This document shows positions 31,506 through 47,290 of a stretch of DNA of 57,552 bases, piece after piece. Position 1 is the first letter of the stretch. Each line of letters begins with the position of its first letter. Under the pieces are notes generated by a model, which was not told where the DNA came from, ran no database searches, and worked only from the letters and a program-made list of their open reading frames with translations. A program made the translations under genes and the position numbers. The stretch comes from a virus (taxonomy: Duplodnaviria; Caudoviricetes), in the IMG/VR virus record IMGVR_UViG_3300025276_000005, positions 1-57,552 of that record, one strand, 5' to 3'.

Positions 31506-31680
31506 CAATGTTGGTTGTCAAGATTCTGACGCTCTCTATATATATATATATTTTTACTCTCTCTTTATATATTTATTTCACTTCAAACTAAAGTTAAAGT
31601 TAACATTGTTGTCAAAGTAATTAATAATCAAATAGTTAATATATTTATTTCAACATAAAGTCAACATAAAGTTAACATTA
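31506..31680. repeat. AT-rich element, copy A (candidate replication origin)
   Basis: Non-coding; (TA)n tract and repeated AAAGTYAACAT; shares ordered motifs with 41767-41940. Confidence 0.5.
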
Positions 31681-31695
31681 AATGTCGAGTTAAAT

Positions 31696-32102: not shown

Positions 32103-32636
32103 TGGGTAAAGATACAAAAATTATTAGATACATAGAGGTGGGAGGTTATATGTCATGTGAGGCAGCTTAGCCCTCGACAGAAACCGATTTTTTTCTTGGG
32201 GGTGGGGGTTGCCTTTTCATATTTTCATATCTATTTTTTTGGCTATTTAGATACGTGCATGTACCACCCTTCAGTTGCGCGTACACATATACCTACCTAC
32301 ATTCATCTGCTCATCACATCTTAATTCATCTAGCAATCTACATAGGTATCTAGTTAGTGATTGTGTTCCACTATATACAATGTCCGCTCAAGCGGATAGC
32401 CTTAGCTAAGGCATATGCATTCATTTTAAGCGCTTCCAGGAAACGCTATTTTTGACATCCTAGCAAAACAAAGGCATACAGAGGTATGACGTTATAACTG
32501 CCCTACACAATTTACCCATAAATAATCCCTAAACCTATTCCTCCCGCAATCCCTTTGCTAGTCAGATATTGAGAGAGTGAATGTCTAAACGTCAAAATAA
32601 ACTTTACATTAATATGCAAATTAGTTATGAATTAGT

Positions 32637-32666
32637 TTTGTACTACGGATTAATCGTCTATCTTTG
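32637..32666 (+). promoter_or_regulatory. Main early promoter, Bacteroidota sigma-A type
   Basis: TTTG (32637-32640), 18-nt spacer, TATCTTTG (32659-32666), at the start of the plus-strand arm. Confidence 0.75.
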
Positions 32667-32825
32667 CTTCAGCAATGGGAAGTATTGCTCGTTCTTTTCT
32701 TACTAACTAACTGATTATCAGATGATTGTCCTCTAAAAGCCCCACGAGATGGGAAGGAAGACAAGAATATCCCTTTATTTCCTAGGGTTTCTGCTGATTA
32801 GGGTGAGAGACATAATGTGAGAGGA

Positions 32826-32886
32826 TATCGTAATGCAGCCAAGGTGGTCACAAGCCCACAACCAAAAAGGGATGCAGAGTGAGATA
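32826..32886 (+). ncRNA. Twister self-cleaving ribozyme (type P1), copy 1; predicted cut U32831/A32832
   Basis: P1 TATC/GATA; U^AA; P2 TGCA/TGCA; GC; P4 GTGG/CCAC enclosing loop TCACAAGC; GAGT. Both pseudoknots (AC/GT, GC/GC) can form. Confidence 0.88.
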
Positions 32887-32903
32887 ACAATTAAACCAAG
32901 ATT

Positions 32904-33032
32904 ATGAAAGAAAAAGATGAGTTTCCTGAAATGGAATTGTATGAACACTATTCTTTTTATGTAGAGAATTGTGTAGACGAAGATAAGGGAGAAATACCTT
33001 TAGGCTTTGACGAATGGAAAATAAACCAATAA
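32904..33032 (+). CDS. 42-aa acidic early peptide, absent from the ORF track
   Basis: MKEKDEFPEMELYEHYSFYVENCVDEDKGEIPLGFDEWKINQ, preceded by the recurring AAACCAAGATTATG start context. Confidence 0.55.
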   Translation: MKEKDEFPEMELYEHYSFYVENCVDEDKGEIPLGFDEWKINQ

Positions 33033-33053
33033 ACCAACTAAACAATAGAAATT

Positions 33054-33761
33054 ATGCCAAATCATTGCAGTAATCATTTAGAAGTAAGCGGAAGTGTAAA
33101 AGAAATGAAAAAGTTTTACGACCATTTATCATTTATCCCTGAGCAAGATCAAGAAAGTTACAATTTTGACTTTAACGACTTTATACCTATGCCTAAAAGC
33201 TTAGATATAATAGCAGGCTCTAGGGTTAATCGCGCTGTTGAAGTTTTAAACGGAGAAGCCAACATGGGTCCAGGAGGAGATTACCCTAACATTACACCTG
33301 AAGATATTGAGTTAGGTAAAACATACCTAAGCAATATGAAGAAGTACGGACATGGAGACTGGTACAGCTGGTCTAACGCTAACTGGGGAACCAAATGGAA
33401 CGCCTATGACGGTTATGCTAATTCAGTAGAAGACGACTATTTTGGAGTTGGCTTTTCTACGGCTTGGTCTCCACCAATGCCTTTATTAGCAAAAATCTGT
33501 GAGCTTTTTCCTAACCTAACTATACAAATGGAATACCAAGAAGAAGGTATGGGATTCGCTGGAGTCGCAGGATCTAATCCAGGAGAAGAGCCTTACGACA
33601 ACGAAGGTGAAATAGTTTACCTAAGTAGCTGTTGTAATAAAGATGTAAACGAAGAAGTTCACATGCAGGAGTGTGAGGACAGCGACTTAGAGAATTGGGA
33701 AATTTGCCCTAAGTGTAAAGAGGAATGCGAATCAATTAGTGAAGTAATTTATAACAACTAA
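33054..33761 (+). CDS. YubB/DUF1281-like ferredoxin-fold early protein with a Cys-rich C-terminus
   Basis: MPNHCSNHL, FNDFIPMP, WYSWSNANWGTKWNA, FSTAWSPP, YQEEGMGFAG. Confidence 0.75.
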   Translation: MPNHCSNHLEVSGSVKEMKKFYDHLSFIPEQDQESYNFDFNDFIPMPKSLDIIAGSRVNRAVEVLNGEANMGPGGDYPNITPEDIELGKTYLSNMKKYGHGDWYSWSNANWGTKWNAYDGYANSVEDDYFGVGFSTAWSPPMPLLAKICELFPNLTIQMEYQEEGMGFAGVAGSNPGEEPYDNEGEIVYLSSCCNKDVNEEVHMQECEDSDLENWEICPKCKEECESISEVIYNN

Positions 33762-33771
33762 AACCAAGATT

Positions 33772-34458
33772 ATGAACAAATTCAACGAATTATTAGCAGC
33801 AAAAAGTGGTGTAAACATCAAGAAAGTTAATACCATTAAGGGACAGATTAACAAGCTAGAGTCTAACAAGTTTGACAAGCAGATTGAGTTATCAAGAATC
33901 TGCTGCTCAGCGGAACAATGGTTTAAGTTAGCAGAAACCAAGCAACATATGAAAGATGCAGAGATTGAGATGACGATGGACAAGTTTGGAAATGATACGT
34001 TTGGATTCAAAAGAAGCCAATGGTCATTGTATAGACAAGTGGGTAACTTACTTACTGAGAAAGAAGAATTACTTGCAACATTCATCGCTGATAGAGAAGA
34101 AAAGGTAGCTAACAATGAAACCCCAAACAAATCATTAAAGGCCTTAAAGGATTGGATGATTAATGATGGTGTAGAGGAAGCAGAAGCAGAAGCAGAAGCA
34201 GAAGCAGAAGAGGAAGCAGAAGCAGAAGCAGAAGCAGAAGAAAAGACTAACTACATTGTTAGTTTTGCTATCAAAGGAGAGCATTTTGAAGATGGCAAAG
34301 GAGTTAGTATTAGAATAGCTGAAAGCGGAATTGTAGAGGGAGACATTGAAAAGATACCAAGTGGATTGAGAAAAGAGTTAGCGAAGTTATCATCTCAGAT
34401 AGCTTTAAAGCAACCAAATGCGATTGTGGAAACCAAAGGTAAGAGTGAATCAAAATAA
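33772..34458 (+). CDS. Early protein with an acidic (EA)n linker
   Basis: 228 aa; GAAGCA tandem repeats. Confidence 0.7.
   Translation: MNKFNELLAAKSGVNIKKVNTIKGQINKLESNKFDKQIELSRICCSAEQWFKLAETKQHMKDAEIEMTMDKFGNDTFGFKRSQWSLYRQVGNLLTEKEELLATFIADREEKVANNETPNKSLKALKDWMINDGVEEAEAEAEAEAEEEAEAEAEAEEKTNYIVSFAIKGEHFEDGKGVSIRIAESGIVEGDIEKIPSGLRKELAKLSSQIALKQPNAIVETKGKSESK
34174..34242 (+). repeat. In-frame hexamer tandem repeat (GAAGCA)n in two blocks
   Basis: Encodes EEAEAEAEAEAEEEAEAEAEAEE. Confidence 0.9.
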
Positions 34459-34464
34459 TCTAAG

Positions 34465-34492
34465 ATGGATGTCCGCTTAAGCGGATGTCCAT
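34465..34492 (+). repeat. Conserved hairpin family TCCGYT(N2)ARCGGA; other copies at 32381, 34827, 35641, 36533, 37579, 38688, 41344 and 48220
   Basis: ATGGATGTCCGCTTAAGCGGATGTCCAT. All copies lie in gaps between convincing genes. Confidence 0.9.
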
Positions 34493-34544
34493 TCCGTATA
34501 CAAGTGAGTGCTTGTACTGATGAGACTAAAAGGTTGAAACGGGA
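34492..34544 (+). ncRNA. Hammerhead self-cleaving ribozyme (type III); predicted cut after GUA at 34498
   Basis: Stem III TTCCGT/ACGGGA; stem I TACAAG/CTTGTA; core CTGATGA (34517-34523); stem II GAC/GTT; GAAA (34536-34539). Confidence 0.85.
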
Positions 34545-34566
34545 AATTAACTTAATACTGAGTGAT

Positions 34567-34818
34567 ATGGAAATTAAAAGAATTGTAGTAGTAATGGATG
34601 TTATTACTGAGGAAAAAACCACATTATATAATGCGTTATCTCTAGAGGATAATTTAATATCTACTATCATAACTTTAACAGAAGATAGCAGGAAAATAAT
34701 GGAATTTGCGTATAGGAATAAGGTATCAATAGACGCAAAGATTGAGAGTATACAATCAAAAAATGGTAGTATTAAAGCATATAGTCAAGCATTCGACATG
34801 ATTGCTTACGAAGGATAA
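34567..34818 (+). CDS. Early hypothetical protein (start re-called at ATG 34567)
   Basis: The longer ORF-track version would run through the hairpin and the hammerhead. Confidence 0.6.
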   Translation: MEIKRIVVVMDVITEEKTTLYNALSLEDNLISTIITLTEDSRKIMEFAYRNKVSIDAKIESIQSKNGSIKAYSQAFDMIAYEG

Positions 34819-34870
34819 AATTAACTAATGGATGTCCGCTTAAGCGGATGTCCATTTAAAACAAAGCATT

Positions 34871-35041
34871 ATGATTACGACAAAACACAGAATTACATAC
34901 GCTAGATGCATTGACTCGGGGATGAGCAGTGCGTTACAGATAGCTACCATCTTTAAGATGGTGTATGACATCACAGATGGTAAAGCATTAAAGCTAACGA
35001 TGGCTTGTGCTGATTACTACAATGAAACACTAACTAAATAA
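34871..35041 (+). CDS. 56-aa early protein, absent from the ORF track
   Basis: MITTKHRITYARCIDSG...; A-rich leader after the hairpin. Confidence 0.5.
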   Translation: MITTKHRITYARCIDSGMSSALQIATIFKMVYDITDGKALKLTMACADYYNETLTK

Positions 35042-35050
35042 GCAGAAATT

Positions 35051-35200
35051 ATGAGCAAATTTACTTTAACAATCATCACAATCTTAGCTACTACGCTAAC
35101 GATTATGGTGTACACAATGTCCAATTGCCTAGAGATTAAACTTCTAATTACGCTAATGGACTTACCGATTATTTTACTGATTGCAAACGAGTTAAACTAA
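35051..35200 (+). CDS. 49-aa hydrophobic (two-segment) early protein, absent from the ORF track
   Basis: MSKFTLTIITILATTLTIMVYTMSNCLEIKLLITLMDLPIILLIANELN. Confidence 0.5.
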   Translation: MSKFTLTIITILATTLTIMVYTMSNCLEIKLLITLMDLPIILLIANELN

Positions 35201-35205
35201 AAGTT

Positions 35206-35583
35206 ATGAAAAAGCGAGTAATTAACTTAGTAATAGATGCGTGTTATCTCATAGACAAAAAACGTGGTGTATTAAAGAATTACGAATATGAGACTGCGCC
35301 ATATTGTGGTCATCATAGGAGTGGAACAGATGGGGTTCTGTATAGTTCTTCTTACGCAGAAGGCGATGGTGGAGAGTCTGCCCATATAATTGGCTTTAGG
35401 TTTACTAAAAGCACAGATGATGAGTATTGGTGGAGTTTTAGATACAAGGTAGTGCGAGAGGTGTTTAACGATGGGTTATTTATAGCAGAGTCAAAATACA
35501 CCACATTCTTAAATGAGTTAAAGGCAGTATTCTTTTACCACAAACACGGATTCAGCCTTAGGTACAGAATAAAAACAAAATAA
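35206..35583 (+). CDS. Early hypothetical protein
   Basis: 125-aa ORF. Confidence 0.6.
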   Translation: MKKRVINLVIDACYLIDKKRGVLKNYEYETAPYCGHHRSGTDGVLYSSSYAEGDGGESAHIIGFRFTKSTDDEYWWSFRYKVVREVFNDGLFIAESKYTTFLNELKAVFFYHKHGFSLRYRIKTK

Positions 35584-35616
35584 ATTAGGTTATGTCTAAT
35601 TTATAATGTATATTTG
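35582..35616 (+). promoter_or_regulatory. Operator/promoter unit 1
   Basis: AAATTAG-N7-CTAATTT, 6 nt, then TATATTTG. Confidence 0.75.
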
Positions 35617-35684
35617 ACTAATTAATAACTAATAACCTATTAGATGTCCGCTTAAGCGGATGTCTGATAATTAAAACCAAGAAG

Positions 35685-36026
35685 ATGAACACGATTTTAG
35701 AAAGAAAAGTGCAATTTAGTGATGATGTAGAAGACACAATGTACACGTCTGATATAATGAGTTACTACAAGATAGACGCAGACACTCAGTTTATAAAGGA
35801 CTTTGATAATTGGATGAAAGAAGGTGGAGGAATAAACAGAGCCACATATAACCTAATTATAAGCAAGAGGGATATAGGCTTGTTTTGTTTAGGAATGAAG
35901 CCAAACGCACAATGGAGACTGAAAGACCTTAAGGCTTACTTTGGAATAAAAGGCAATAAGGAAAAGTGCAAAGAGTTGATAGAGGTATTAACAGAATTAT
36001 TTATACCACAGAGCAATGAAGGGTAA
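35685..36026 (+). CDS. Early hypothetical protein
   Basis: 113-aa ORF following the promoter and hairpin. Confidence 0.65.
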   Translation: MNTILERKVQFSDDVEDTMYTSDIMSYYKIDADTQFIKDFDNWMKEGGGINRATYNLIISKRDIGLFCLGMKPNAQWRLKDLKAYFGIKGNKEKCKELIEVLTELFIPQSNEG

Positions 36027-36156
36027 GGCGATAGTAATAGATGGTCACTTAGTTAAGCTAGATAAAGAGGGTAACTTCTTTAGGCTTAACGGAAGTGGTG
36101 TATGGGTGCAGATAAGTAATCAAGAACTTTTTAAAATTATAAGCGATGAAGTATAA
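36016..36156 (+). CDS. 46-aa early protein, absent from the ORF track
   Basis: MKGKAIVIDGHLVKLDKEGNFFRLNGSGVWVQI...; overlaps each neighbour by 11 nt. Confidence 0.5.
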   Translation: MKGKAIVIDGHLVKLDKEGNFFRLNGSGVWVQISNQELFKIISDEV

Positions 36157-36457
36157 AGGATGGACAAACAGAGCGACTTGGTTATTCAATGTTTACTATG
36201 GAGACAAAATAAATAACGAGGACGACTTCAACAGAGAAAAAAACCAATGCGAAGAAGATCACGAGAACCTAGTGAACACTATAGGCACTTGTATATGGTC
36301 TGATATGATTGATATTAGAGAGATAAACTTTGTCGAGTTATTTGAGACGATGAGTTCAGATTGGGATGAGTTTAAATGCGAGATGTGTGAAGAGTCAATG
36401 ACTGAGGAAGACCATCACTTTTGTGATATATGTGGAGATTGCCGGGATGGGGAATAA
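36146..36457 (+). CDS. Early acidic protein with a C-terminal Cys cluster
   Basis: YKGWTNRATW N-terminus; CEMC...CDICGDC. Confidence 0.65.
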   Translation: MKYKGWTNRATWLFNVYYGDKINNEDDFNREKNQCEEDHENLVNTIGTCIWSDMIDIREINFVELFETMSSDWDEFKCEMCEESMTEEDHHFCDICGDCRDGE

Positions 36458-36470
36458 AATAAGTTAAAAT

Positions 36471-36505
36471 AAATTAGGTCATGTCTAATTCATAACTTAT
36501 ATTTG
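36471..36505 (+). promoter_or_regulatory. Operator/promoter unit 2
   Basis: AAATTAG-N7-CTAATTC, 6 nt, then TATATTTG. Confidence 0.75.
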
Positions 36506-36566
36506 CCTAATCAATAACTAATTAACTAACAATGTCCGTTCAAGCGGACTTATTAAAACCAAGATT

Positions 36567-36767
36567 ATGGCGCAGAAGACAATAAAGAAAGGTGAGGGCT
36601 ACGAGGTAGTCGCTCACTACACCAACAATGAGTTTGGACTTGAGGTCACATCAGTTGACTACGAGTGTAGTGTAACTAATTGTGTGGTTCCTATAGATAC
36701 CTTCCTATACGATTTCCTAAGTGTAGGAGCAATTAACGAAATGGAAGACAAACTAAAACAAGACTAA
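36567..36767 (+). CDS. Early hypothetical protein
   Basis: 66 aa; AAAACCAAGATTATG start context. Confidence 0.6.
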   Translation: MAQKTIKKGEGYEVVAHYTNNEFGLEVTSVDYECSVTNCVVPIDTFLYDFLSVGAINEMEDKLKQD

Positions 36768-36771
36768 GATT

Positions 36772-36939
36772 ATGGGACAGATGAAAGAATTATTTATCTC
36801 AATGCAAGAAGGACTTATGCAAGGGATAACAATCACAAACGCTCAGCGTGAGCGTGACTTACAAGAGGAAGAGCAAGGAGAGTCGGGCAAGGTAGGAATT
36901 ATTAACACACCTAAAGACAATAGCGATGAAGAACAATAA
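36772..36939 (+). CDS. 55-aa early protein, absent from the ORF track
   Basis: MGQMKELFISMQEG...; fills the gap between two ORFs. Confidence 0.5.
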   Translation: MGQMKELFISMQEGLMQGITITNAQRERDLQEEEQGESGKVGIINTPKDNSDEEQ

Positions 36940-37210
36940 ACTTATAGCAGAATTTATGGGGTTGAAAGAGCATAAAGGCTCATACTACATACCACTTTAT
37001 AATAGTGGGGATTGGGTTCCCGATGTTGAGTTAGATTATCACACCTCTTGGGATTGGCTTATGCCTGTGGTAATGAAAATATCAGGCAAACTAAATAAAC
37101 CTCTTGATGAGATTATTTCACTCCTTACGGAGGTTAATAGCGATAATATATGGGATATTAAGTCTTTGTATAGTGCAGTAGTAGAATTTATTAAAAACCA
37201 AACCAACTAG
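36926..37210 (+). CDS. Early hypothetical protein
   Basis: NNKLIAEFMG...YHTSWDWLMPVV...YSAVVEFIK, a pattern I recall from Bacteroidota phages. Confidence 0.65.
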   Translation: MKNNKLIAEFMGLKEHKGSYYIPLYNSGDWVPDVELDYHTSWDWLMPVVMKISGKLNKPLDEIISLLTEVNSDNIWDIKSLYSAVVEFIKNQTN

Positions 37211-37215
37211 AAATT

Positions 37216-37572
37216 ATGAGTAAAGAAAGAAGTTTTACAAAGGATGACGTAGTTAATGCTATGGTAACAGAGTTACGAAAAAAGTCAATATTCGTAACCT
37301 ACAAAGGTAGAAAAATGCTACCTCAAATATCTCACCACATCCCAAAGAGTATGATTAAATCAGACAACCCAATATACCTTAGATGCTACAAGAGGCTTTG
37401 GAAAGAAAGCAGAAAGATAGATAACCCAATAGAGGTTAAAGAGCCTAAAGTTAGTCCATCTGTTATTCAAAGAGAGCGTATCGTTAAATCTTCTAGCAAG
37501 GTGGTTATAAACATGAAGGATAGAGTCATTACAATAGAGGATGGCAAAGACATCAACATAAGTTATAGATAA
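37216..37572 (+). CDS. Early basic hypothetical protein
   Basis: 118-aa ORF. Confidence 0.6.
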   Translation: MSKERSFTKDDVVNAMVTELRKKSIFVTYKGRKMLPQISHHIPKSMIKSDNPIYLRCYKRLWKESRKIDNPIEVKEPKVSPSVIQRERIVKSSSKVVINMKDRVITIEDGKDINISYR

Positions 37573-37601
37573 AACAACAGAGTCCGTTCGAACGGACTCT
37601 T

Positions 37602-37665
37602 TCTTTAATGTCACTAAGGTGGTCACAAGTCCATCAATCTAAGAGTTAGAGAGACAGAGTGGAGA
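37602..37665 (+). ncRNA. Twister self-cleaving ribozyme (type P1), copy 2; predicted cut U37606/A37607
   Basis: P1 TCTT/GAGA; U^AA; P2 TGTC/GACA; AC; P4 GGTGG/CCATC enclosing loop TCACAAGT; P5 TCTAA/TTAGA; GAGT. Compensatory changes relative to copy 1. Confidence 0.9.
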
Positions 37666-37692
37666 TAATTAAAAAACAAAACAACTAAAATT

Positions 37693-38025
37693 ATGGGATA
37701 CAGAAGCGAAGTTTACATAGCAATACCAAAGGCAGATGAGTTAGAATTAGATGCTATATTAATAGAGCACCATTTATTTGGTGGAGATTACTTTACTAAA
37801 ACTAATTATTTAGGGTACGTAACCTATCATTGCCCACATCTTAAATGGCATAGTCACTATAATGATGTAAGAGCAGTAAATGATTTTATATCAGAAATCC
37901 CTCTAGATAATTTCCCAAAAGAAGGTAGATGCTTGGTGTGTGTTGGAGAGGATGATAGGATACACTCAGATATAGGAGAATATCAAGAGGTATTCAATAT
38001 ATATACTAAAGTAGAACTACAATAG
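37693..38025 (+). CDS. Early hypothetical protein
   Basis: MGYRSEVYIAI...LKW...VGED. Confidence 0.65.
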   Translation: MGYRSEVYIAIPKADELELDAILIEHHLFGGDYFTKTNYLGYVTYHCPHLKWHSHYNDVRAVNDFISEIPLDNFPKEGRCLVCVGEDDRIHSDIGEYQEVFNIYTKVELQ

Positions 38026-38148
38026 AAAACGAGAGTACCAAGCGTGAGTTGGGCATATAGTAAAAAGTCCTAACAGGGGTGTTAGGCAAAAGTCAGTGTC
38101 GGAAGGGGGCTTTCCTCCCCTTTCCTTCATAACTAAAACAAGACTAAG

Positions 38149-38304
38149 ATGGACTTACGAGATATTACGATAAAGATAGAGGCATACGCCAACCAAAGAG
38201 TAATAGAGGAGTTGGAGGAGTTACTAAGAAGAGCTGAAGGTAGTGGTAGAAATATAACTAATGTTGAATTATCTTTAATAATCAAATATCTAAAACAAGA
38301 CTAA
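38149..38304 (+). CDS. 51-aa early protein, absent from the ORF track
   Basis: MDLRDITIKIEAYANQRVIEELEELL...; AAAACAAGACTAAGATG start context. Confidence 0.5.
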   Translation: MDLRDITIKIEAYANQRVIEELEELLRRAEGSGRNITNVELSLIIKYLKQD

Positions 38305-38305
38305 G

Positions 38306-38524
38306 ATGCCTGCAGCAAGACAAGAGTATGTAAAAAGTAAATATCAAGGAGTATCAGGGGTTATGACTAAAGGCGTAGTTAAATGGCGTGTAAACATCGC
38401 AGGAGTAGGACGTGCTAATTTAGCTTCTGAAAGAGAATGTGCTATTGCAGTAGATAAAATTAAAATAAGTCAAGGTAAAGAACCCGTTAATATACTAAAG
38501 AGAGTTAAAATAATTAGTCTATGA
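38306..38524 (+). CDS. AP2-like DNA-binding protein
   Basis: SKYQGV...KWRVNI...SERECAIAVD resembles the AP2 domain pattern. Confidence 0.6.
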   Translation: MPAARQEYVKSKYQGVSGVMTKGVVKWRVNIAGVGRANLASERECAIAVDKIKISQGKEPVNILKRVKIISL

Positions 38525-38545
38525 CTAATTTATAACTTATATTTA
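38511..38545 (+). promoter_or_regulatory. Operator/promoter unit 3
   Basis: AATTAGTC-TAT-GACTAATT followed at the same spacing by TATATTTA (one mismatch to the -7 box). Confidence 0.6.
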
Positions 38546-38556
38546 CATAATTATTA

Positions 38557-38682
38557 GTGGTCAACTTGGTTTCTCCGATGTCTTGGGGACTGAAGGATTG
38601 TCTGCTTATGGTTAATAGTCGTGACCACGTGGGTGTTTTTAATGCTTCACCTATTCATAACGACAAAGACAGTCAAAGACAT
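38557..38682 (+). ncRNA. Unassigned structured RNA (long interrupted hairpin with a possible pseudoknot)
   Basis: Nested stems ATGTCTT/AAGACAT, GACTG/CAGTC, TTGTC/GACAA, TTATG/CATAA, GTGGGTG/CACCTAT, plus GTGGTCA/TGACCAC. Confidence 0.55.
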
Positions 38683-38729
38683 TAATTGGATGTCCGCTTA
38701 GGCGGACATCTACTTTAAACTAAAAACAT

Positions 38730-39086
38730 ATGACAAGTAGATTAAAAGAAAGTATAGTAAACGATATTCGGGCAGAGAAACTTTGCTCTACTCCGGATAA
38801 ACACCACATACAGAGGTGTCAGAAAATACTAGATAACCTAGAGAGTCTAACTTACGAGCAGTTTATTAATACCGGACACATAATGCCTAAGAGGCATATT
38901 ATAGATAGGTATCCTCATAGAAAGCTGAAGGAAAATACCAAGACAGTTTGTAGGTATGTAGGTGGTTTCTGTATTGAATTTATAGGAAAGGATGACTTTT
39001 TTTGGGGCTACCATAAAGACAAAGACTTTAAGCACGTTGAGATGACGTTGTATAACCACGTAAAGAACACAATAGATGAGCGATAA
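38730..39086 (+). CDS. Hypothetical protein
   Basis: 118-aa ORF. Confidence 0.6.
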   Translation: MTSRLKESIVNDIRAEKLCSTPDKHHIQRCQKILDNLESLTYEQFINTGHIMPKRHIIDRYPHRKLKENTKTVCRYVGGFCIEFIGKDDFFWGYHKDKDFKHVEMTLYNHVKNTIDER

Positions 39087-39360
39087 ATCGAGAGAGTATC
39101 AGATTAAAAAGTACACTAACAAGATACAAGAGATGTTAATTAGTAAAAACAAAGCGTATGGGAGTTCTGCTCTTGAGCCTCTGAATGTATTCAGTAAGGG
39201 TAGACCTTCCGACTCTTTGTGTGCAAGGATAGACGATAAGTTAGCAAGGATAAAGAACGTAGGTATATCAGACAAGACAGAGGATACAGTCTTCGACTTG
39301 ATAGGTTACCTTATATTATTAATGATTTCACTAGAAGACGATGAAGAAAGCAATATTTAA
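39076..39360 (+). CDS. DUF1599/nucleotide-modification-associated (all-alpha NTP-PPase-like) protein
   Basis: KNKAYGSS...RIDDKLARI...EDTVFDLIGYLIL. Confidence 0.65.
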   Translation: MSDKSREYQIKKYTNKIQEMLISKNKAYGSSALEPLNVFSKGRPSDSLCARIDDKLARIKNVGISDKTEDTVFDLIGYLILLMISLEDDEESNI

Positions 39361-39640
39361 TCAGTATGCGGATGAGATATCAAGATTATTCTCAATAGAC
39401 CAAAAAGAAATATTCAGTAAAGGTAAACGAAGAGATTTAGTTAGTGCTAGGCACATACTATTTTACCTTTGCTACAACAGACCAATGCGAGGTACTGAGA
39501 TTCAATACTATATGGGGTTGCGTGGGTATAAAATAAACCACTCCTCAATTATGTACGGTATAAGGTCTGTCAACGAACTTATTACAAACGATAAAGACTA
39601 CGCATCTGTTGTTAAAAAAGTATCGATATGCGTGGACTAG
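39341..39640 (+). CDS. DnaA domain IV-like HTH protein
   Basis: KRRDLVSARHILFYL...EI...NHSSIMYGIRSV. Confidence 0.7.
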   Translation: MKKAIFNQYADEISRLFSIDQKEIFSKGKRRDLVSARHILFYLCYNRPMRGTEIQYYMGLRGYKINHSSIMYGIRSVNELITNDKDYASVVKKVSICVD

Positions 39641-40047
39641 AATCAGTATTTGAAGAAGCCAAGCTAGACGAATACTCAGGAGTTTTAGATAGTAGGGGAG
39701 TTGAGGCTAGAATTGTACTTGCGATAAAGATTACACGAGACAGAGAAAGTGGTGATGTTGAGATACTTAACACCTCTAAAGGAGGGGATTACTACAAAGA
39801 AATATCTAAAGATGAGTACGAATTATTCATCAAAAAAGGTTGGAGATATGGAGTTTATGTCTTATATTTGTCTAATTGCCGACTAAAACTTAACTCAATT
39901 GAGATTAGAATTAACGAGCATATACAAGAGAGCATCAATACTACGTTAGAGATGTTGCAGACAAGGAGAAAAGTAATACTAAACAATTACGCAAAAGTTA
40001 AAAATAAATTAAATCAAATCAACAATGAACAAGAACACTTACAGTAA
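39628..40047 (+). CDS. Hypothetical protein
   Basis: 139-aa ORF overlapping its neighbours. Confidence 0.6.
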   Translation: MRGLESVFEEAKLDEYSGVLDSRGVEARIVLAIKITRDRESGDVEILNTSKGGDYYKEISKDEYELFIKKGWRYGVYVLYLSNCRLKLNSIEIRINEHIQESINTTLEMLQTRRKVILNNYAKVKNKLNQINNEQEHLQ

Positions 40048-40609
40048 ATTAGCATCGCTCCATATCAAGGATAAAGTTGAGCGTAAAGGAAAGATGGATT
40101 ACCTATCGTGGGCAAATGCTTGGCATATGCTTAAGACTGAGCATCCAAACGCACAAAGAAAGGTGTACGAATCAGAGCATACGGGATTAAACTTCTTCAC
40201 TGATGGTTCAACTGCGTACGTTAAGGTTGGGATTATAGTAGACGAGTTAGAGCATATTGATTACTTACCGGTAATGGATTTTAGAAACAAGTCTGTGTCT
40301 TTAGAGAACGTAACATCTATGGACATCAATAAAACCATTCAGCGTTCAACAGCTAAGGCTATTGCAATGCACGGTCTAGGATTGTCTTTATGGACGGGAG
40401 AGGATGTGCCTGAGTTAACTACAACTACTAAGATAGTAGATAAAGCGCCTAAGATGATGGCGCTAGAGATTGGTGATGAGAATTGGGCTAAGGTTATGAA
40501 GTACATAACAGCTAATAAGAGTCTAGGTCTTACAAAAATCATATCAAACTTAGGTGCTAAGTACAGCATAAAGGCTTCTGTAAAGAAGGAGATAGAAAAA
40601 GCTATGTAG
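40025..40609 (+). CDS. Sak3/DUF1071-like (Rad52-fold) single-strand annealing protein
   Basis: DYLSWANAW...LPVMDFRNK...DINKTIQRSTAKAIAMHGLGLSLWTGED. Confidence 0.8.
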   Translation: MNKNTYSKLASLHIKDKVERKGKMDYLSWANAWHMLKTEHPNAQRKVYESEHTGLNFFTDGSTAYVKVGIIVDELEHIDYLPVMDFRNKSVSLENVTSMDINKTIQRSTAKAIAMHGLGLSLWTGEDVPELTTTTKIVDKAPKMMALEIGDENWAKVMKYITANKSLGLTKIISNLGAKYSIKASVKKEIEKAM

Positions 40610-40610
40610 T

Positions 40611-41345
40611 ATGAAGGATGTATTAGAGAAGCTACGAGACGATGCTGAGTATTACGGAGGGGTAGGTAAGAACTACCTCTCTAACTCAGACATACAAGCG
40701 TTGCTAGGAAACATAAAAGAATTCCGTGTACCACGTGCAGACAATCCGGTATTCGCTAAGGGAAGGTTATTCCATCAACTTATACTAGAGCCTGAGAAGG
40801 CATCTGAGGTTGTTTCATTAGATATTGGCTCAAGGAATACCAAAGCGTATAAAGACTTTGTAGTAGATAACGAATTAGAGTTCTGTCTGCTAGATAAAGA
40901 GGTTAACGATATTAAGTCTTGGGTATCCTCAATGATGTCTAATATGGACTTCTTCGATATGATTACTGAGGAAGGAAATCAATATGAAATACCTAGCATA
41001 CGAGAGATTAAGGGCGTGATGTGGAAAGGTAAGGCTGACATCATAGGTAACGAATGCCTAATGGATTTAAAGACTACCGGAGACATTAAGAAATTTAAGA
41101 GGTCTGCTAGTCTATACAACTACGATAGTCAGGCATACATATACCAAGAGTTATTTGGTAAGCCACTTATATTCTTAGTGATAGATAAGACTACGCATCA
41201 GCTTGGAATATTCAGACCATCTGAGGACTTCATTAAGAGAGGAGAGCGTAAGGTAGAGAAAGCAGTAGAGGTTTACCATAACTTCTTCTCAGACAGTGCT
41301 GAAAAAAGCATTGAAGATTTCTACATTGAAGAGTACATTGATTAG
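40611..41345 (+). CDS. PD-(D/E)XK exonuclease (RecE/DUF3799-like)
   Basis: LSNSDI, GRLFHQLILEP, KGKADII, DLKTT, YNYDSQAYIY. Confidence 0.8.
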   Translation: MKDVLEKLRDDAEYYGGVGKNYLSNSDIQALLGNIKEFRVPRADNPVFAKGRLFHQLILEPEKASEVVSLDIGSRNTKAYKDFVVDNELEFCLLDKEVNDIKSWVSSMMSNMDFFDMITEEGNQYEIPSIREIKGVMWKGKADIIGNECLMDLKTTGDIKKFKRSASLYNYDSQAYIYQELFGKPLIFLVIDKTTHQLGIFRPSEDFIKRGERKVEKAVEVYHNFFSDSAEKSIEDFYIEEYID

Positions 41346-41433
41346 TCTGTTCGAACAGACTCACACAGATGGCAATTCGTGATGCTTCCCTAGTTACGAT
41401 GAGCCTTTTTTAAAAGGGAATTAAATTTATATT

Positions 41434-41706
41434 ATGTCAAAAGAAAAAATCTTTGCAGACGGATTCTCGTTCTCAACGAGAGACAATCAACCTGACTTCG
41501 TTGTTGGGAGAGTATCAGTGAAAATTGAGGATGCTATACCATTCTTAAAAGAACACGGGGCTAAGCGTGGATGGGTGAACCTCAACGTGTTAGTAGGAAG
41601 AAGTGGTAACCCATACGTGGAGCTTGATACCTTTGAACCAAAAGCAAGTAACTTGAAATTCTCTACACCTGCTGCACCTGCAGAAGATGAGAACTTACCT
41701 TTCTAA
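41434..41706 (+). CDS. Probable single-stranded DNA-binding protein
   Basis: 90 aa, beta-rich, acidic tail EDENLPF, next to the annealase and exonuclease. Confidence 0.65.
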   Translation: MSKEKIFADGFSFSTRDNQPDFVVGRVSVKIEDAIPFLKEHGAKRGWVNLNVLVGRSGNPYVELDTFEPKASNLKFSTPAAPAEDENLPF

Positions 41707-41730
41707 TTCCCCCCGCAAATTAGATTATAG

Positions 41731-41764
41731 AGTGGATAGGCGTAAAAGTCTATCCACTTTTTTT
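41731..41764 (+). terminator. Intrinsic terminator downstream of the SSB gene
   Basis: AGTGGATAGGC-GTAAAA-GTCTATCCACT followed by a T run. Confidence 0.85.
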
Positions 41765-41766
41765 AC

Positions 41767-41940
41767 CAATGTTAACTGACGATTTTATTTTCCTATATAC
41801 TATTATATATTTTTATACTATTTATTATTTTTTTTTATCTACATTTGAAGGATAAAGTTAACATTATTAACACTACTATTGATAATCAAAGTGTTACCTT
41901 TTAATTTTTAACATAAAACAAACACAATGTCAACATTAAA
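41767..41940. repeat. AT-rich element, copy B (candidate replication origin) upstream of the primase-helicase
   Basis: Same ordered motifs as 31506-31680. Confidence 0.5.
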
Positions 41941-44314
41941 CGTCACGATATTTAAAAATATCAAGGAAACTGCGACTCCATTCTACAGGGAAGTCAGTGT
42001 AGTACTACAAAGAATTAAGGAAGGGGCATCTAAAGACTTAGTAAAAAGTATACGGTCAGAGAAAGATAAGCCACAACGAAACGAACTTAAGAAATTACTT
42101 CCTGCAATATGTTTCTCAGGTACATTCACAAAAAGAAACGACACATCACTAACAGAACATAGTGGTTTAATATGCTTAGACTTTGATGGCTACCCTAAGA
42201 TGAAGGATATGCTAGAAGAGAAAGAGAGGTTGAGTAAGAACAGATACATATACTCTGTGTTTATATCGCCATCGGGTAATGGTTTAAAAGCTTTAGTTAA
42301 AGTACCACAAGATGCCGACAACCACGTAAACTACTTCAATTCTTTAGAGAAGCACTTCAACTCAGAGTTCTTTGATAAGACCTGTAAGAATATATCAAGA
42401 GTTTGTTACGAATCGTATGACCCTTTGGTTTACGTTAACGAGACATCTTCTTTATGGGATACGATAGAGGATTTAGAGTACAAGGAGATTTCAATAATCA
42501 GAGATGCTCCTACGATACCAATTACAGACGAGAATAAAATAGTTGAGATACTCGTTAAGTGGTGGACAAAGAAATACCCAATGGCTGAGGGTCAGAGAAA
42601 TCAGAATGCTTTTATTCTAGCTATGGCTTTCAATGACTACGGGGTTAATAAGAGTTTATCTTCTTACGTTCTTAACGGATACGCAAACGAAAGCTTTAAC
42701 TTGAATGAGATTGAGAGAACAATTGACTCTGCTTATGCGAACACTCAAAACTTTGGGAGTAAGTACTACGAGGATGAGGAGAGAGTTAACAACATCAAGT
42801 CTCAGTTCAGAAGAGGTGCGACAAAAAAAGAAATCCGTCAAGAATTAGAGGACTCGAATCTAGACGGAGCAGTTATCGAGTCAGTAATGACCAAAGTCTT
42901 AGACGAGAATGCTCTTAAGCAGTTTTGGACAAAGAGCGATAAGGGTGCTATTAAAATAGTTCACATCCTTTTTAAGACGTTCTTAGAGGATAACGGCTTC
43001 TATAAGTATTGTCCGGAGGGAGGAAAGAACTACGTCTTTGTAAGGGTCACAAACAACCTCATAGACCACACGTCAGAGAAGGAGATAAAGGACTTTATAT
43101 TAGGTCACTTAATTTCTCTAGAGGATTTGAGTATATATAACTACTTCGCAGATAACACTAGGTTGTTTAGAGAGGAATTCCTTACACTACTATCTACGAT
43201 TGACATCTACTTCATATCAGATACCAAAGACTCAGCTTACTTGTACTATAAGAATTGTGCAGTACAGATAACTAAGGATGGTGTTAAAGCAATTGACTAC
43301 TTAGACTTGGGTGGTTACGTTTGGAGTGACCACGTTATAGATAGGAACTTTAACATATGTGATGTAGGTAATTGTGATTACAAGACATTCATAAGTAACG
43401 TAAGTGGTAGAGACCCTAAAAGAGTCCTTACAATGGAGAGTACGATAGGGTTTATGCTACACGCACATAAGAACTTAGCTTACTGCCCTGCTATCATACT
43501 AAACGATGAGGTTATATCAGACAATCCTGAAGGTGGTACGGGTAAAGGTTTATTTATGAATGCCCTATCTAAGATGAAGAAGGTTGTTACGATTGACGGT
43601 AAGTCATTCACGTTTGAGCGTTCGTTTGCGTACCAACTTGTATCGGCTGACACTCAGATACTTGTATTTGATGACGTTAAGAAACACTTTGACTTCGAGA
43701 GATTGTTCAGTGTAGTTACAGAAGGTTTGACTTTAGAGAAGAAGAATAAGGATGCTATTAAAATTCCGTTCAGCAAATCTCCAAAGGTTGCTATAACAAC
43801 TAACTACGCGATTAAAGGTTCGGGTAATTCATTTGCTAGACGTAAATGGGAGCTAGAACTATGTCAGTACTACAGCAAAGACTTTACTCCTTTAGACGAG
43901 TTCGGAAAGTTAATGTTCGGAGATTGGGGCGATGACGAGTGGTGTGGTTTTGATAACTATATGATTGGATGCCTTCAAGAGTATTTACTTAATGGGTTAC
44001 AGTTTAGTGAGTCCACAAACGGACCGACCAAGATACTATCACAAACAACTAACCACGAGTTTATTGAATGGTGTGGTCTTGTAGAAGGTGTGGAGGGCTC
44101 AGCGTATCTACCGGTAGATGTTAAGTTGAATTGTCAGCAGTTATACTATGACTTTATGGAGGAGTATCCGCAATACTCAAAAGGCAACGGAAACACTTTA
44201 TCAAAAGCAGCGTTCTATAAGTTCTTAGTTGAGTACGCTAAGTTTAAAGAAGGTGTTAAGCCTGATGTTGGTAGAGATGTACAAGGAAGATTTATGGTAA
44301 TTAAAACAAAATAA
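41927..44314 (+). CDS. Primase (VirE-N/BT4734-like, plus PriCT) fused to an SF3-type helicase
   Basis: KKLLPAICFSGTF, HSGLICLDFD, FISPSGNGLK, RVCYESYDP; EGQRNQNAF; Walker A GGTGKG, FDDV, ITTNY. Confidence 0.85.
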   Translation: MSTLNVTIFKNIKETATPFYREVSVVLQRIKEGASKDLVKSIRSEKDKPQRNELKKLLPAICFSGTFTKRNDTSLTEHSGLICLDFDGYPKMKDMLEEKERLSKNRYIYSVFISPSGNGLKALVKVPQDADNHVNYFNSLEKHFNSEFFDKTCKNISRVCYESYDPLVYVNETSSLWDTIEDLEYKEISIIRDAPTIPITDENKIVEILVKWWTKKYPMAEGQRNQNAFILAMAFNDYGVNKSLSSYVLNGYANESFNLNEIERTIDSAYANTQNFGSKYYEDEERVNNIKSQFRRGATKKEIRQELEDSNLDGAVIESVMTKVLDENALKQFWTKSDKGAIKIVHILFKTFLEDNGFYKYCPEGGKNYVFVRVTNNLIDHTSEKEIKDFILGHLISLEDLSIYNYFADNTRLFREEFLTLLSTIDIYFISDTKDSAYLYYKNCAVQITKDGVKAIDYLDLGGYVWSDHVIDRNFNICDVGNCDYKTFISNVSGRDPKRVLTMESTIGFMLHAHKNLAYCPAIILNDEVISDNPEGGTGKGLFMNALSKMKKVVTIDGKSFTFERSFAYQLVSADTQILVFDDVKKHFDFERLFSVVTEGLTLEKKNKDAIKIPFSKSPKVAITTNYAIKGSGNSFARRKWELELCQYYSKDFTPLDEFGKLMFGDWGDDEWCGFDNYMIGCLQEYLLNGLQFSESTNGPTKILSQTTNHEFIEWCGLVEGVEGSAYLPVDVKLNCQQLYYDFMEEYPQYSKGNGNTLSKAAFYKFLVEYAKFKEGVKPDVGRDVQGRFMVIKTK

Positions 44315-44574
44315 TGAAAACACAAGAAACACTACTAGATTTCCTAGTCTACAACTATAGAGAGGAAACATTCCTAAAGGCTGATGGATTTGATTCTGCC
44401 TGTATAGGATTTGATTATAAGACAAGACGATTGATATACTCAACAAGCAAGTGCATCAAAATACTTGTAGATGATGGTATGGATTACGAAGAGGCTTGCG
44501 AGTACTTTCAGTTCAATATATTAGAGGCTTACGTTGGAGAGAAGACACCAATCTTTGCCATAGACGAATGGTAG
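44314..44574 (+). CDS. Hypothetical phage protein
   Basis: ADGFDSACIG...YEEACEYFQFNILEAYVGEKTPIF. Confidence 0.65.
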   Translation: MKTQETLLDFLVYNYREETFLKADGFDSACIGFDYKTRRLIYSTSKCIKILVDDGMDYEEACEYFQFNILEAYVGEKTPIFAIDEW

Positions 44575-45812: not shown

Positions 45813-45813
45813 A

Positions 45814-47100: not shown

Positions 47101-47101
47101 A

Positions 47102-47290
47102 ATGTCGTTAACATACTATCAACAATCAAGATTAAAGAATATAAACCTGTTGATGGATGAGATACACGACTCTACTAATAAGGTCTACGAACACTTAGCT
47201 GACAAGGAAAGTAAAGAGGCTAAGGCAGAGGTTAGAGCATTGATTAAGAAGCTAGATAATTTAATAAGCTCCTTAGAGGATGAGTCTTAA
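47102..47290 (+). CDS. Small coiled-coil protein
   Basis: 62-aa ORF. Confidence 0.55.
   Translation: MSLTYYQQSRLKNINLLMDEIHDSTNKVYEHLADKESKEAKAEVRALIKKLDNLISSLEDES

Follow-up and report, generated by a model that had tools for sequence, protein, structure and literature searches.

The window analysed here, 57,552 nt in full, is the complete 57.5-kb genome of a marine phage whose host probably belongs to the Bacteroidota. Between 32.9 and 38 kb, its + strand carries a block of small orphan genes joined by a repeated junction module, which consists in order of a GC-rich hairpin, an optional self-cleaving ribozyme, an A-rich leader of 17-27 nt and an ATG. Predicted ribozymes occupy three junctions: a twister (twister 1; 32827-32885), a type III hammerhead (34492-34544) and a second twister (twister 2; 37602-37665), all on the + (gene-sense) strand and outside likely coding frames. 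The leaders between ribozyme end and start codon measure 18, 22 and 27 nt, respectively; the first-pass annotation had given the same lengths for the last two and 17 nt for the first. The + strand genes that follow, none of them with a family match, encode 42 aa (ORF 1, 32904-33032, starting past P1 of twister 1), 83 aa (34567-34818) and 110 aa (37693-38025). An alternative ATG for the 83-aa ORF occurs at position 34465, within the repeated hairpin. Some 165 nt before the cut of twister 1, the + strand has a promoter-like string (32637-32666; TTTG-N18-TAtcTTTG) of the Bacteroidota -33/-7 consensus type. A search of the window for the pattern TTTG-N18-TAnnTTTG returned two matches against 1.84 expected by chance, so that the position of the string in a divergent intergenic region is the one argument for a promoter.

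Both internal ribozymes directly adjoin + strand hairpins, in agreement with the first-pass annotation. The hairpin before the hammerhead (34465-34492; repeat families D3 and D4) has 12 bp with two G-U pairs and a UUAA loop, and it shares one base with the hammerhead, its last being the first of stem III. The hairpin before twister 2 (37579-37600; 9 bp, AGAGUCCGU-UCGA-ACGGACUCU) was flagged as terminator-like, and its T-rich tail, UUCUUU, constitutes the 5' strand of twister 2 P1 plus the cleavage U. Bare-hairpin junctions without a ribozyme form the majority in this phage, with at least four on the + strand. The 28-nt hairpin found at 34465 recurs at 34828-34855, followed by an A-rich leader and the ATG at 34871. 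Two other hairpin-only junctions include copies of the promoter-like repeat D1, one at 35577-35666 (a palindrome plus TATATTTG; repeat 35577-35639, hairpin about 35641-35666) before the ATG at 35685, and one at 36466-36549 (repeat 36466-36528, hairpin 36534-36549) before the ATG at 36567. A further one (38687-38710) precedes the ATG at 38730, where the conserved replication/recombination block starts, and the + strand block ends in an intrinsic-terminator-like element (48219-48251) made of a hairpin of the junction family and T8. Because hairpin-only copies and D1 repeats lie inside them, the transcript units of 1667 nt (32832-34498) and 3108 nt (34499-37606) proposed in the first-pass annotation are an oversimplification.

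Twister 1 and twister 2 are type P1 twisters that align to the full length of the Rfam model RF03160 (twister-P1), with predicted cuts at U32831/A32832 and U37606/A37607. Twister 1 scored 36.3 bits, with E-values of 2.8e-5 (5.5-kb search), 6.8e-8 (one-family genome search) and 2.9e-4 (whole window against all 4227 families), and twister 2 scored 28.3 bits (E = 1.4e-5 per genome). Neither reached the gathering score of 67.2, and a gathering-threshold Rfam scan of the window returned no families. According to the alignments, both lack the P3 stem expected by the model, and P5 has 2 bp in twister 1 and 5 bp in twister 2. Both copies accommodate the remaining helices P1, P2, P4 and P5 as well as two pseudoknots, T1 and T2. 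The class and the cuts assigned earlier hold. In twister 1, P1 (32827-30/32882-85), with a G-A mismatch among its four positions, P2 (32834-37/32873-76) and P4 (32844-47/32856-59) are accompanied by T1 (32838-39/32854-55) and T2 (32849-51/32879-81). The corresponding elements of twister 2 are P1 (37602-05/37662-65), P2 (37609-12/37653-56), P4 (37619-22/37631-34), P5 (37638-42/37646-50), T1 (37613-14/37629-30) and T2 (37624-26/37659-61). Relative to the Rfam consensus, both twisters have changed both strands of T2 (CCC/GGG to CAC/GUG) and of a C-G pair in P4 (to U-A).

Marine metagenomes yielded 25 twister homologues with compensatory changes in P1, P2 and P5, two of them (L126 and L134) related to twister 1 and 23 to twister 2, the latter with the same hairpin as in the window. 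Among 11 distinct sequences (two from the window and nine from metagenomes), 96.2% of cells were paired and 9 of 22 pairs had changed on both sides; none of 500 shuffles reached the covariation score, and slid controls paired at 31-48%. T1 was G-U in six sequences, G-C in three and A-U in two, and P5 appeared as UCUAA/UUAGA, CCUAA/UUAGG and CUAGA/UCUAG. The invariance of P4 and T2 in this set is partly by construction, because the collecting pattern fixed 19 core bases.

The hammerhead has a stem III of 6 bp, a stem I of 7 bp with a GAGU loop, a stem II of GACU/GGUU with G10.1-U11.1, and the core CUGAUGA...GAAA; its predicted cut is 3' of A34498, in a GUA triplet. The minimum-energy fold is a three-way junction, and the region comprising hairpin and hammerhead (34462-34546) folds at -29.7 kcal/mol (z = -4.5). 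Its match to Rfam RF00008 is not significant by itself, with 20.8 bits and E = 0.016 in a 111-nt search and 13.4 bits and E = 0.25 per genome. Thus, of the elements for which the first-pass annotation had suggested a check against Rfam models, the twisters match and the hammerhead is weak, all being below the curated cut-offs. However, a model (R1) whose seed comprised 26 hammerheads from phage relatives and excluded the window sequence gave 64.1 bits and E = 1.9e-13. The type III assignment and the cut at 34498/9 hold. In the R1 seed, whose sequences were chosen through a pairing filter, pairing is kept in 98.6% of cells, and both sides have changed in 12 of 16 pairs. The hammerhead of the closest relative (L019, 1857-1909) is identical at 47 of 53 bases; pair 1.1-2.1, C-G in L019, is U-A in the window, and both changes in stem II still pair, as G-U. 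The 10.1-11.1 pair is G-C in all 26 seed sequences and G-U in the window. The G-U may slow the window hammerhead, although U/U (15) and A/A (3) variants are found among 46 family hammerheads.

We considered whether at least one element has lost its activity and survives as a relic, or matches by chance, as their sub-gathering Rfam scores, the G-U at 10.1-11.1 and the P1 mismatch of twister 1 might suggest. Family-specific models, however, gave E-values of 1e-13 to 1e-21 (the twisters being included in their own model by construction), and the folds are preserved in homologues through compensatory changes. Moreover, in contig pieces from four studies, no other letters occur at the hammerhead and twister 2 among the differences listed, and long pieces over twister 1 have zero to two listed differences (33462 and 33813), which fall outside it. 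A relic or chance match is therefore very improbable, and the three elements are genuine self-cleaving ribozyme folds at the coordinates of the first-pass annotation.

The first-pass annotation had also proposed a survey of related phages for ribozymes at syntenic positions, and ribozymes were found in relatives. A search of related loci with R1 (score of 50 bits or more) detected 46 type III hammerheads, which come from 23 of 81 sources, number no more than five in any locus and all lie on the + strand. They fall within the variable small-ORF region, none of them nearer than 3.4 kb to the primase gene downstream. A median of 21 nt separates them from the ATG (n = 46). An ATG opening an ORF of at least 40 aa lies within 40 nt of 39 of the 46 hammerheads (28% for random positions), and for 42 of the 46 the preceding 50 nt contain a perfect stem of 6 bp or more (13.5% for random controls). 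This recurrence of the hairpin-ribozyme-leader-ATG module fits a processing role. When whole records were searched, 22 of 51 gave 43 matches, each in the same sense as the primase gene, and the other 29 had no type III hammerhead. As these 29 records lack it and bare-hairpin junctions prevail, ribozyme cutting is not essential to the architecture. Ribozyme classes are interchangeable within one slot: seven relatives carry 13 type I hammerheads, two of them weak matches to RAGATH-1-hammerhead, and close relatives have such hammerheads in the same slot. Window gene 34871 is preceded by a bare hairpin and its L019 ortholog by a type I hammerhead, and in L019 and L062 the family hairpin itself serves as stem III of a type I hammerhead.

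The modules are also portable. In metagenome contigs, the hairpin-twister-2 module precedes homologues of genes 35685 (16 loci), 36567 (one) and 36772 (four) and another gene at one locus, while in the window it precedes gene 37693; in other strains, the genes that follow the twister module are thus of no fewer than four kinds. Such placement suggests that hairpin-ribozyme-leader units might be kept mainly as DNA recombination joints of mobile, PeSL-like cassettes, letting genomes swap small genes, with cleavage secondary or dispensable. Indeed, variant joints fall exactly at module edges in contigs from four independent studies: one joins 34550, 6 nt past the hammerhead, to 35044; another connects 37202 with the hairpin start at 37579; and a third fuses the twister 3' edge (37663) to the leader of another gene (35666) with 11 bases shared. 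Two reports on PeSLs in T4-type phages (PMC2839356, PMC4122927) provide a precedent. However, homology for recombination needs no catalytic core, and here compensatory changes preserve the core bases together with every helix, which points to selection on the RNA fold. We consider recombination as the main role unlikely; it is compatible with RNA processing, and both can hold.

The explanation that best accommodates the folds, covariation, strand, positions and recurrence of the elements, and which we regard as probable, is that the ribozymes cut the early + strand transcript and insulate its gene cassettes. Each ribozyme would fold during the passage of RNA polymerase and cut at its own 5' edge, twister 1 acting in leader position behind the presumed first promoter. 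The upstream RNA would stop 6 nt past the hairpin, at a 2',3'-cyclic phosphate; in the case of twister 2, termination at the T-rich tail would leave nearly the same end. The downstream mRNA would begin with a 5'-OH, have 0-2 unpaired bases at this end and carry the folded body of the ribozyme just before an unstructured leader. With helices as short as P1 (3-4 bp) and stem III (6 bp) holding them together, the cleavage products could separate. Stability and translation of a cassette would then be independent of upstream sequence, and the module would do in nature what the synthetic RiboJ insulator does, and without protein what RNase III does for T7 early mRNA. As far as sequence can tell, splitting of a long message into separately handled pieces by ribozymes is plausible; that they cut in vivo, what becomes of the ends and how the phage benefits are inferred.

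The same cuts could instead lower or time expression, by separation from promoter-proximal RNA, by exposure to 5'-exonucleases or as slow or conditional switches. In some bacteria, a 5'-OH end sometimes triggers decay instead of preventing it (glmS, RNase J1), a precedent for lowered expression, and stem II of the window hammerhead is weakened by two G-U pairs. However, the cleaving elements precede start codons by 17-27 nt, and cutting would give one product a folded 5' domain and the other a 3' hairpin, the usual marks of stable RNA ends. No ligand-binding or alternative-fold element was seen, and the minimum-energy folds are the active ones. Even with the discussion of regulated or slow phage hammerheads in Perreault et al. 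2011 (PMC3088659), we hold lowering or timing to be decidedly improbable.

Returning to insulation by cleavage, the fragments between cuts (32832-34498 and 34499-37606) would carry 5'-OH and 2',3'-cyclic phosphate ends, from which the first-pass annotation had derived possible circular mRNAs. RtcB joins such ends, and this end chemistry is the whole case for circularisation by a host RtcB-type ligase. A Pfam scan of the 56 window proteins found no RtcB, ligase or kinase domain, the ends are 1.7 and 3.1 kb apart with no pairing seen that would bring them together, and internal promoter-like repeats and hairpins speak against one defined fragment. Perreault et al. 2011 (PMC3088659) report that circular or spliced products of clustered hammerheads were sought and not detected. 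Circular mRNAs are thus unsupported and extremely unlikely.

Like known twisters, the window copies have the type P1 fold with P1, P2, P4, T1, T2 and a U-A cut site, and they differ from them in lacking P3, in their short P5, in T2 (CAC/GUG, not CCC/GGG) and in their sub-cut-off scores. Roth et al. (2014) and, in a further study, Weinberg et al. (2015) reportedly found twisters in gene neighbourhoods common with hammerheads, as a review (PMC6765202) also states. In phage T7, the early polycistronic mRNA is cut between cistrons by host RNase III at long duplex sites, leaving hairpins at product 3' ends, whereas here the RNA is predicted to cut itself, with 5'-OH and 2',3'-cyclic phosphate ends. 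In the synthetic insulator RiboJ (PMC6206723), a 5' UTR ribozyme removes the promoter-derived leader and makes expression context-independent. Twister 1 has exactly the position of RiboJ, which is engineered and has its hairpin after the ribozyme, not before it as in the window. PeSL cassettes also have repeated intergenic motifs bracketing small variable genes, which are shuffled there, but are not known to contain a ribozyme (PMC2839356, PMC4122927). According to Perreault et al. 2011 (PMC3088659), haloviruses HF1/HF2 have a hammerhead 13 nt upstream of an early helicase gene and a mapped transcript 5' end within 3 nt of the cut. This likewise places a ribozyme immediately before an early-gene start codon in a lytic virus, but the virus is archaeal, its hammerhead is a variant present once, and a hairpin module is absent.

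The arrangement of self-cutting RNAs before phage genes is already described for other phages, and the novelty raised for it in the first-pass annotation was overstated. Perreault et al. 2011 (PMC3088659) showed that three clusters of prophage hammerheads cut transcripts of about 2 kb in vitro and suggested that long phage RNAs are thereby divided into gene-length mRNAs, which lends support to the processing reading here; co-occurrence of twisters and hammerheads in such contexts, with gene neighbourhoods in common, is covered in a review (PMC6765202). As in those clusters, several same-strand ribozymes flank single genes or short blocks of phage origin. Unlike those clusters, the window combines twisters and a hammerhead within a single operon, in a marine phage that looks lytic; its internal ribozymes are each fused to a GC-rich hairpin particular to the family, and bare hairpins or promoter-like repeats take the ribozyme slot at other junctions.

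A 4.8-kb part of the window holds three predicted ribozymes, all in sense orientation and in the intergenic gaps of a single phage gene block. The first-pass annotation had claimed a twister, a hammerhead and a second twister at these sites. All three were confirmed, the twisters by Rfam family RF03160 (36.3 and 28.3 bits) and the hammerhead by R1, a covariance model built from 26 type III hammerheads of related phages with the window left out (64.1 bits). The Rfam covariance-model search suggested at that time as a check gave a divided result: the twister-P1 matches were significant by E-value, whereas the hammerhead had an E-value of 0.25 per genome, and all three fell below the gathering thresholds.

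Twister 1 (32827-32885) was a full-model match to RF03160 (twister-P1, clan CL00120), with E-values of 2.8e-5 in a 5.5-kb search, 2.9e-4 over the whole window and 6.8e-8 in a single-family genome search. In the last of these searches, twister 2 (37602-37665) had an E-value of 1.4e-5. A whole-window Rfam scan at gathering thresholds reported no family, and a permissive scan reported twister 1 only. Both twisters score under the RF03160 gathering threshold (67.2 bits), largely because the P3 hairpin is missing, with 17 model positions deleted in the alignment. P3 is an optional stem in the twister class. The alignment otherwise runs the full length of the model (positions 1-68), and both sequences accommodate the helices P1, P2, P4 and P5 and the pseudoknots T1 and T2, which join the P4 loop to strands adjoining P2. 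The stem order is that of type P1, both RNA ends lie in P1, and P1 of twister 1 has one G-A mismatch. Minimum-energy folds recovered P1, P2 and P4 of both twisters, and also P5 of twister 2. Twister 1 has GC/GC as its T1 pseudoknot and twister 2 has AC/GU; both have CAC/GUG as T2. The conserved nucleotides are present, namely the cut-site UAA, the P4 loop UCNCAAG(C/U) and the GAG after P2; the alignment of twister 1 keeps the consensus letters UAA, GC-C, GGUC-CAAG-CC, AAA and GAG. Compared with the Rfam consensus, both copies have A-U for C-G at the middle T2 pair and U-A for C-G at the second P4 pair, with both strands changed, and the two copies differ from each other on both sides of two P2 pairs and one T1 pair. 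The two elements have the structure and the conserved bases of type P1 twisters and are predicted self-cleavers, whose cuts at 32831/2 and 37606/7 would leave 5'-OH and 2',3'-cyclic phosphate ends.

Metagenome contigs were scanned with a twister pattern that fixed 19 core bases, and 30 loci were found. Twenty-five were homologues of the window elements (23 of twister 2, one of them truncated, and two of twister 1), and four were permuted twisters of unrelated phages. The metagenome loci comprised 10 distinct sequences. Across 11 distinct twister sequences, 96.2% of cells were paired and 9 of 22 pairs were changed on both sides; the covariation score was reached by none of 500 shuffles, and sliding the partners reduced pairing to 31-48%. 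P1, P2 and P5, which were free in the search pattern, covary, and T1 varies on one side while remaining paired (G-U 6, G-C 3, A-U 2). The constancy of P4 and T2 carries little weight because the pattern itself fixed the core bases. Twisters of this kind are common in marine metagenome contigs; among the 81 records and loci compared they were found in the window only. The sole other RF03160 match in the records of 50 relatives (G040, one relative's record; 19.7 bits, E 0.004) was rejected as a sequence without the twister core. A search of 30 other relatives' records gave no RF03160 match, and our own twister model R2, which includes the window twisters, found none in 86 other loci and none in 15 MAG loci. 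In viral contigs, an earlier twister pattern returned 12 loci that included just two twisters, both of type P5, and a second pattern returned two permuted twisters, all of them in unrelated phages.

The hammerhead (34492-34544) has the core CUGAUGA at 34517-34523 and GAAA at 34536-34539, and its GUA triplet places the predicted cut after A34498. Rfam by itself would not establish this element: RF00008 gave 20.8 bits (E 0.016) in local mode over 111 nt and 13.4 bits over the genome, against a gathering threshold of 48.5 bits. Run over 51 records, however, the same family matched type III hammerheads strongly in many relatives, with scores reaching 47.6 bits (E 5e-11), and relatives with an ordinary stem II scored 40-47.6 bits, also slightly under the threshold. 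A descriptor scan yielded 26 well-formed copies in relatives, whose alignment showed covariation in all three stems, with 12 of 16 pairs changed on both sides. R1, built from these copies, recognized the window element with an E-value of 1.9e-13. Its minimum-energy fold is a three-way hammerhead junction in which loops close stems I and II and stem III is open. The copy in the closest relative (L019, 1857-1909) is identical at 47 of 53 bases; from L019 to the window, C17 becomes A, the pair C1.1-G2.1 becomes U-A in a compensatory change, and two C-to-U changes turn stem II from GACC/GGUC into GACU/GGUU.

The window is a complete virus record (57,552 bp) that has direct terminal repeats. Its minus strand carries the structural and packaging genes together with one GroEL-like and one PhoH-like gene (1-31451). 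The plus strand carries the small-ORF block (32904-48066), which is followed by genes for the annealing protein Sak, a PDDEXK exonuclease, a primase/helicase, a SNF2-type helicase and an HNH endonuclease. The minus strand also encodes a giant protein of 2611 aa (48250-56085) that belongs to no known family, with neither a Pfam family nor a PDB sequence match. Fourteen of the 15 proteins encoded at 32904-38025 have no PHROG family. The crAss-phage muzzle protein shares its C-terminal domain (E 5.5e-15) with the protein encoded at 1932-2726 (minus strand), and the phage may be distantly related to the crAss-like phages. AT-rich direct repeats ending AAAGTTAACATT are present in the divergent intergenic region (31564-31682) and directly upstream of the primase gene (41822-41865); they look like iterons and are candidate replication origins. 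Within gene 33772-34458, about seven GAAGCAGAAGCA-like units of 12 nt stand in tandem (34161-34252) and encode a Glu/Ala-rich run, and contigs seem to be broken there.

The primase has a great many relatives in IMG/VR, on at least 598 stretches, and 80 of these, with 64-83% identity, were kept as L019-L098. Among named phages, the nearest have Flavobacterium and other Bacteroidota as hosts, and 10 of 15 related contigs in MAG collections were binned with Bacteroidota. One relative (L158, range 2457-24826) sits at the extreme end of a 3,001,278-bp Saprospiraceae MAG contig; this is either a phage copy, integrated or attached, or a join made in assembly. The DNA datasets containing the window stretch are metagenomes of marine water, sediment, sponge and invertebrate. 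A blastn search of 32500-38100 against a phage collection gave no match. Six loci with 62-63% identity to the 235-aa protein of 33054-33761 (L001-L006) were discarded as a source of ribozyme homologues; they belong to a different phage context and have no twister or hammerhead motif near that gene.

A survey of related phages was also suggested by the first-pass annotation. At 50 bits or more, R1 detected 46 type III hammerheads in 23 of 81 sources (the window and 22 loci), with up to five per locus, all on the strand of the primase gene. None of the hits in the loci falls in the conserved replication block; their distance upstream of the primase gene is 3.4 kb or more in every case. On whole records R1 gave 43 matches in 22 of 51, all in sense, and on MAG loci four matches in 3 of 15. 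Hammerheads are expected to have canonical core-adjacent pairs at 10.1-11.1, 1.1-2.1 and 15.1-16.1, by the criterion given in Perreault et al. 2011 (PMC3088659). In the window copy these are U-A at 1.1-2.1, A-U at 15.1-16.1 and G-U at 10.1-11.1, the last being a wobble and no mispair. Among the 46 matches, the 10.1-11.1 pair is G-C in 27, U/U in 15, A/A in three and G-U in one. The wobble is unusual; the family, judged from its sequences, tolerates departures at this position, and the window copy is a candidate cleaver. The U/U (15/46) and A/A (3/46) copies form a subclass (L095:3615-3667, L026:3776-3828, L037:5687-5739, L084:1937-1989 and 14 more) with otherwise normal covariation in stems I and III; their recurrence in many phages makes them probable functional variants.

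With a second descriptor, 13 type I hammerheads were detected in seven loci. Relatives carry type I copies in addition to one to five type III hammerheads per locus. Six with the form GGUUAA-CUGAYGA...GAAAC are located at L019:2130-2193, 3292-3355 and 4598-4661, and at L062:1183-1250, 2855-2918 and 4585-4648. In these, the hairpin that each phage repeats between its genes serves as stem III, and in four of the six the cut (GUC/UUAACC) falls 13-18 nt before the next ATG. For two type I copies, RAGATH-1-hammerhead gave weak matches.

The ribozymes are part of a junction module consisting of a GC-rich hairpin, an optional ribozyme, a short A-rich leader and an ATG. Between the type III hammerheads' 3' ends and the next ATG that opens 40 codons or more, the median distance is 21 nt, and 39 of 46 are within 40 nt, compared with 28% of positions drawn at random from those loci. 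Within 50 nt upstream, 42 of 46 have a perfect stem of 6 bp or more, compared with 13.5% of random positions, a count that misses the window's own hairpin, whose stem has two G-U pairs and is seen in the fold. The hairpin family has seven plus-strand copies at 32377-38710 and further copies at 41344, 45531 and 48223, and the hairpin at 48219-48244, followed by T8, ends the plus-strand block. Copies are also found within coding regions, in the SNF2-type helicase gene (45529-45550) and in the giant gene (55389-55406 and 55743-55760), and the helicase-gene copy is conserved at the same place in L019, L059 and L061. A ribozyme follows just two hairpin copies of the window, and the others lead directly into the A-rich leader and ATG. 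In both hairpin-ribozyme modules, a 6-nt tail is left behind the hairpin. The hairpin at 37579 is terminator-like by scan, and its T-rich tail is the 5' strand of the twister P1 plus the cleavage U; the 3' end left on the upstream RNA would therefore be almost identical after termination and after cleavage of read-through RNA. For the presumed cut-off leader (32672-32831), folding is no better than that of shuffled sequences (z 0.32), giving no sign of a released structured RNA.

Two ribozyme-free hairpins are preceded by a 63-nt promoter-like repeat, D1, composed of an inverted repeat (ATTAGGTYATGTCTAAT) followed by a TATATTTG box. D1 occurs at 35577-35639, 36466-36528 and 38506-38568, with a weak fourth copy at 39831-39893, and resembles an operator combined with a -7 box of the Bacteroidota type. 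As the first two copies each lie no more than 2 nt ahead of a junction hairpin, the D1 copies are probably internal promoters of the small-ORF block. By eye, the L019 equivalent is TTTG-N20-TAtcTTTG. An E. coli-type sigma-70 scan found 49 sites where 52.4 were expected and was uninformative. In L021, a relative without hammerheads, an uncatalogued two-hairpin module is repeated in the same between-gene slots (2876-3007, 3838-3922 and 4091-4403); it consists of GTTCACCCGAGTGAAC, then CCTCCTCAAG...CTTGAGGTGG, then an A-rich leader.

The module is found ahead of different genes. In metagenome contigs, the hairpin-twister-2 module precedes homologues of the window genes 35685 (16 loci), 36567 (one locus) and 36772 (four loci), and another gene in one locus, while in the window it precedes 37693. 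The same gene has a twister ahead of it in some strains and the promoter-like repeat with a bare hairpin in others, and at one and the same junction slot, one phage has a type I hammerhead where another has the hairpin alone. Contigs joined 34550 to 35044, 37202 to 37579 and 37663 to 35666, all at module edges. In strain variants from four studies, small genes are lost, swapped or reordered with breakpoints at the edges of hairpin/ribozyme modules, and there is a variant hotspot at about 36.77-37.2 kb (36770-37200). In contigs of four independent studies covering 32600-38100, none of the listed differences falls inside the three ribozymes, which is no proof of invariance because 134 further differences were unlisted.

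The conserved series of hairpin, cutter, short unstructured leader and start codon, in which three ribozyme architectures serve as the cutter, suggests that the sense transcript is cut immediately upstream of a cistron. A type III hammerhead or type P1 twister would cut at its 5' edge, so that the upstream RNA would end in the hairpin and the ribozyme body would be kept as a folded 5' domain of the downstream mRNA. With the type I hammerheads of relatives, the body would stay with the upstream RNA and the downstream mRNA would begin 13-18 nt before the ATG. Separation itself would be the feature common to both, and we read the cutting as insulation of gene cassettes. In E. coli and B. subtilis, 3' hairpins, 5'-terminal structure and 5'-OH ends protect against monophosphate-dependent nucleases; in Bacteroidota the ends may alter stability, up or down. 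We propose tentatively, and with less than even confidence, that the hairpin-ribozyme-leader unit is a portable, host-independent "expression socket" and a homology patch for gene exchange among marine Bacteroidota phages. A small gene behind the unit would be freed as its own message, with a hairpin-capped neighbor upstream and a structured 5'-OH start. The socket would be a ribozyme-based equivalent of PeSL cassettes with interchangeable cutters (twister, type III and type I hammerhead), and a promoter plus hairpin could be the alternative without cutting.

Among the papers listed by a literature search on the topic, none dealt with this lineage of marine phages or with a ribozyme module fused to a hairpin. 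The role of most bacterial and phage self-cleaving ribozymes is described as "largely elusive" in a 2019 review (PMC6765202), which also notes that twister and hammerhead share gene neighborhoods, that it seems to matter little which motif is present, and that a function has yet to be defined. This phage lineage supplies natural comparisons that could make the role testable, namely a twister versus the promoter-like repeat with a bare hairpin, and a type I hammerhead versus a hairpin. Three ribozyme architectures share one junction design, and for biochemistry the family offers compact twisters without P3 as well as hammerheads whose 10.1-11.1 pairs are unusual. The earlier interpretation, an early operon cut by its ribozymes into separate units, is partly supported, and was largely anticipated in print. 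Long phage transcripts were proposed to be processed by hammerheads, and transcripts of about 2 kb were cleaved in vitro (Perreault et al. 2011, PMC3088659). The same paper locates a halovirus hammerhead 13 nt ahead of an early gene, and its account of clustered hammerheads reports no circular or spliced products. A 2026 paper describes translation initiation enabled by ribozyme cleavage in fungal and plant RNA viruses, which is a loose parallel to the window ribozymes. In the prophages of Perreault et al. 2011 (PMC3088659), several hammerheads flank genes; the picture drawn in 2011 is unchanged by the present finding, which adds some useful natural variation to it.
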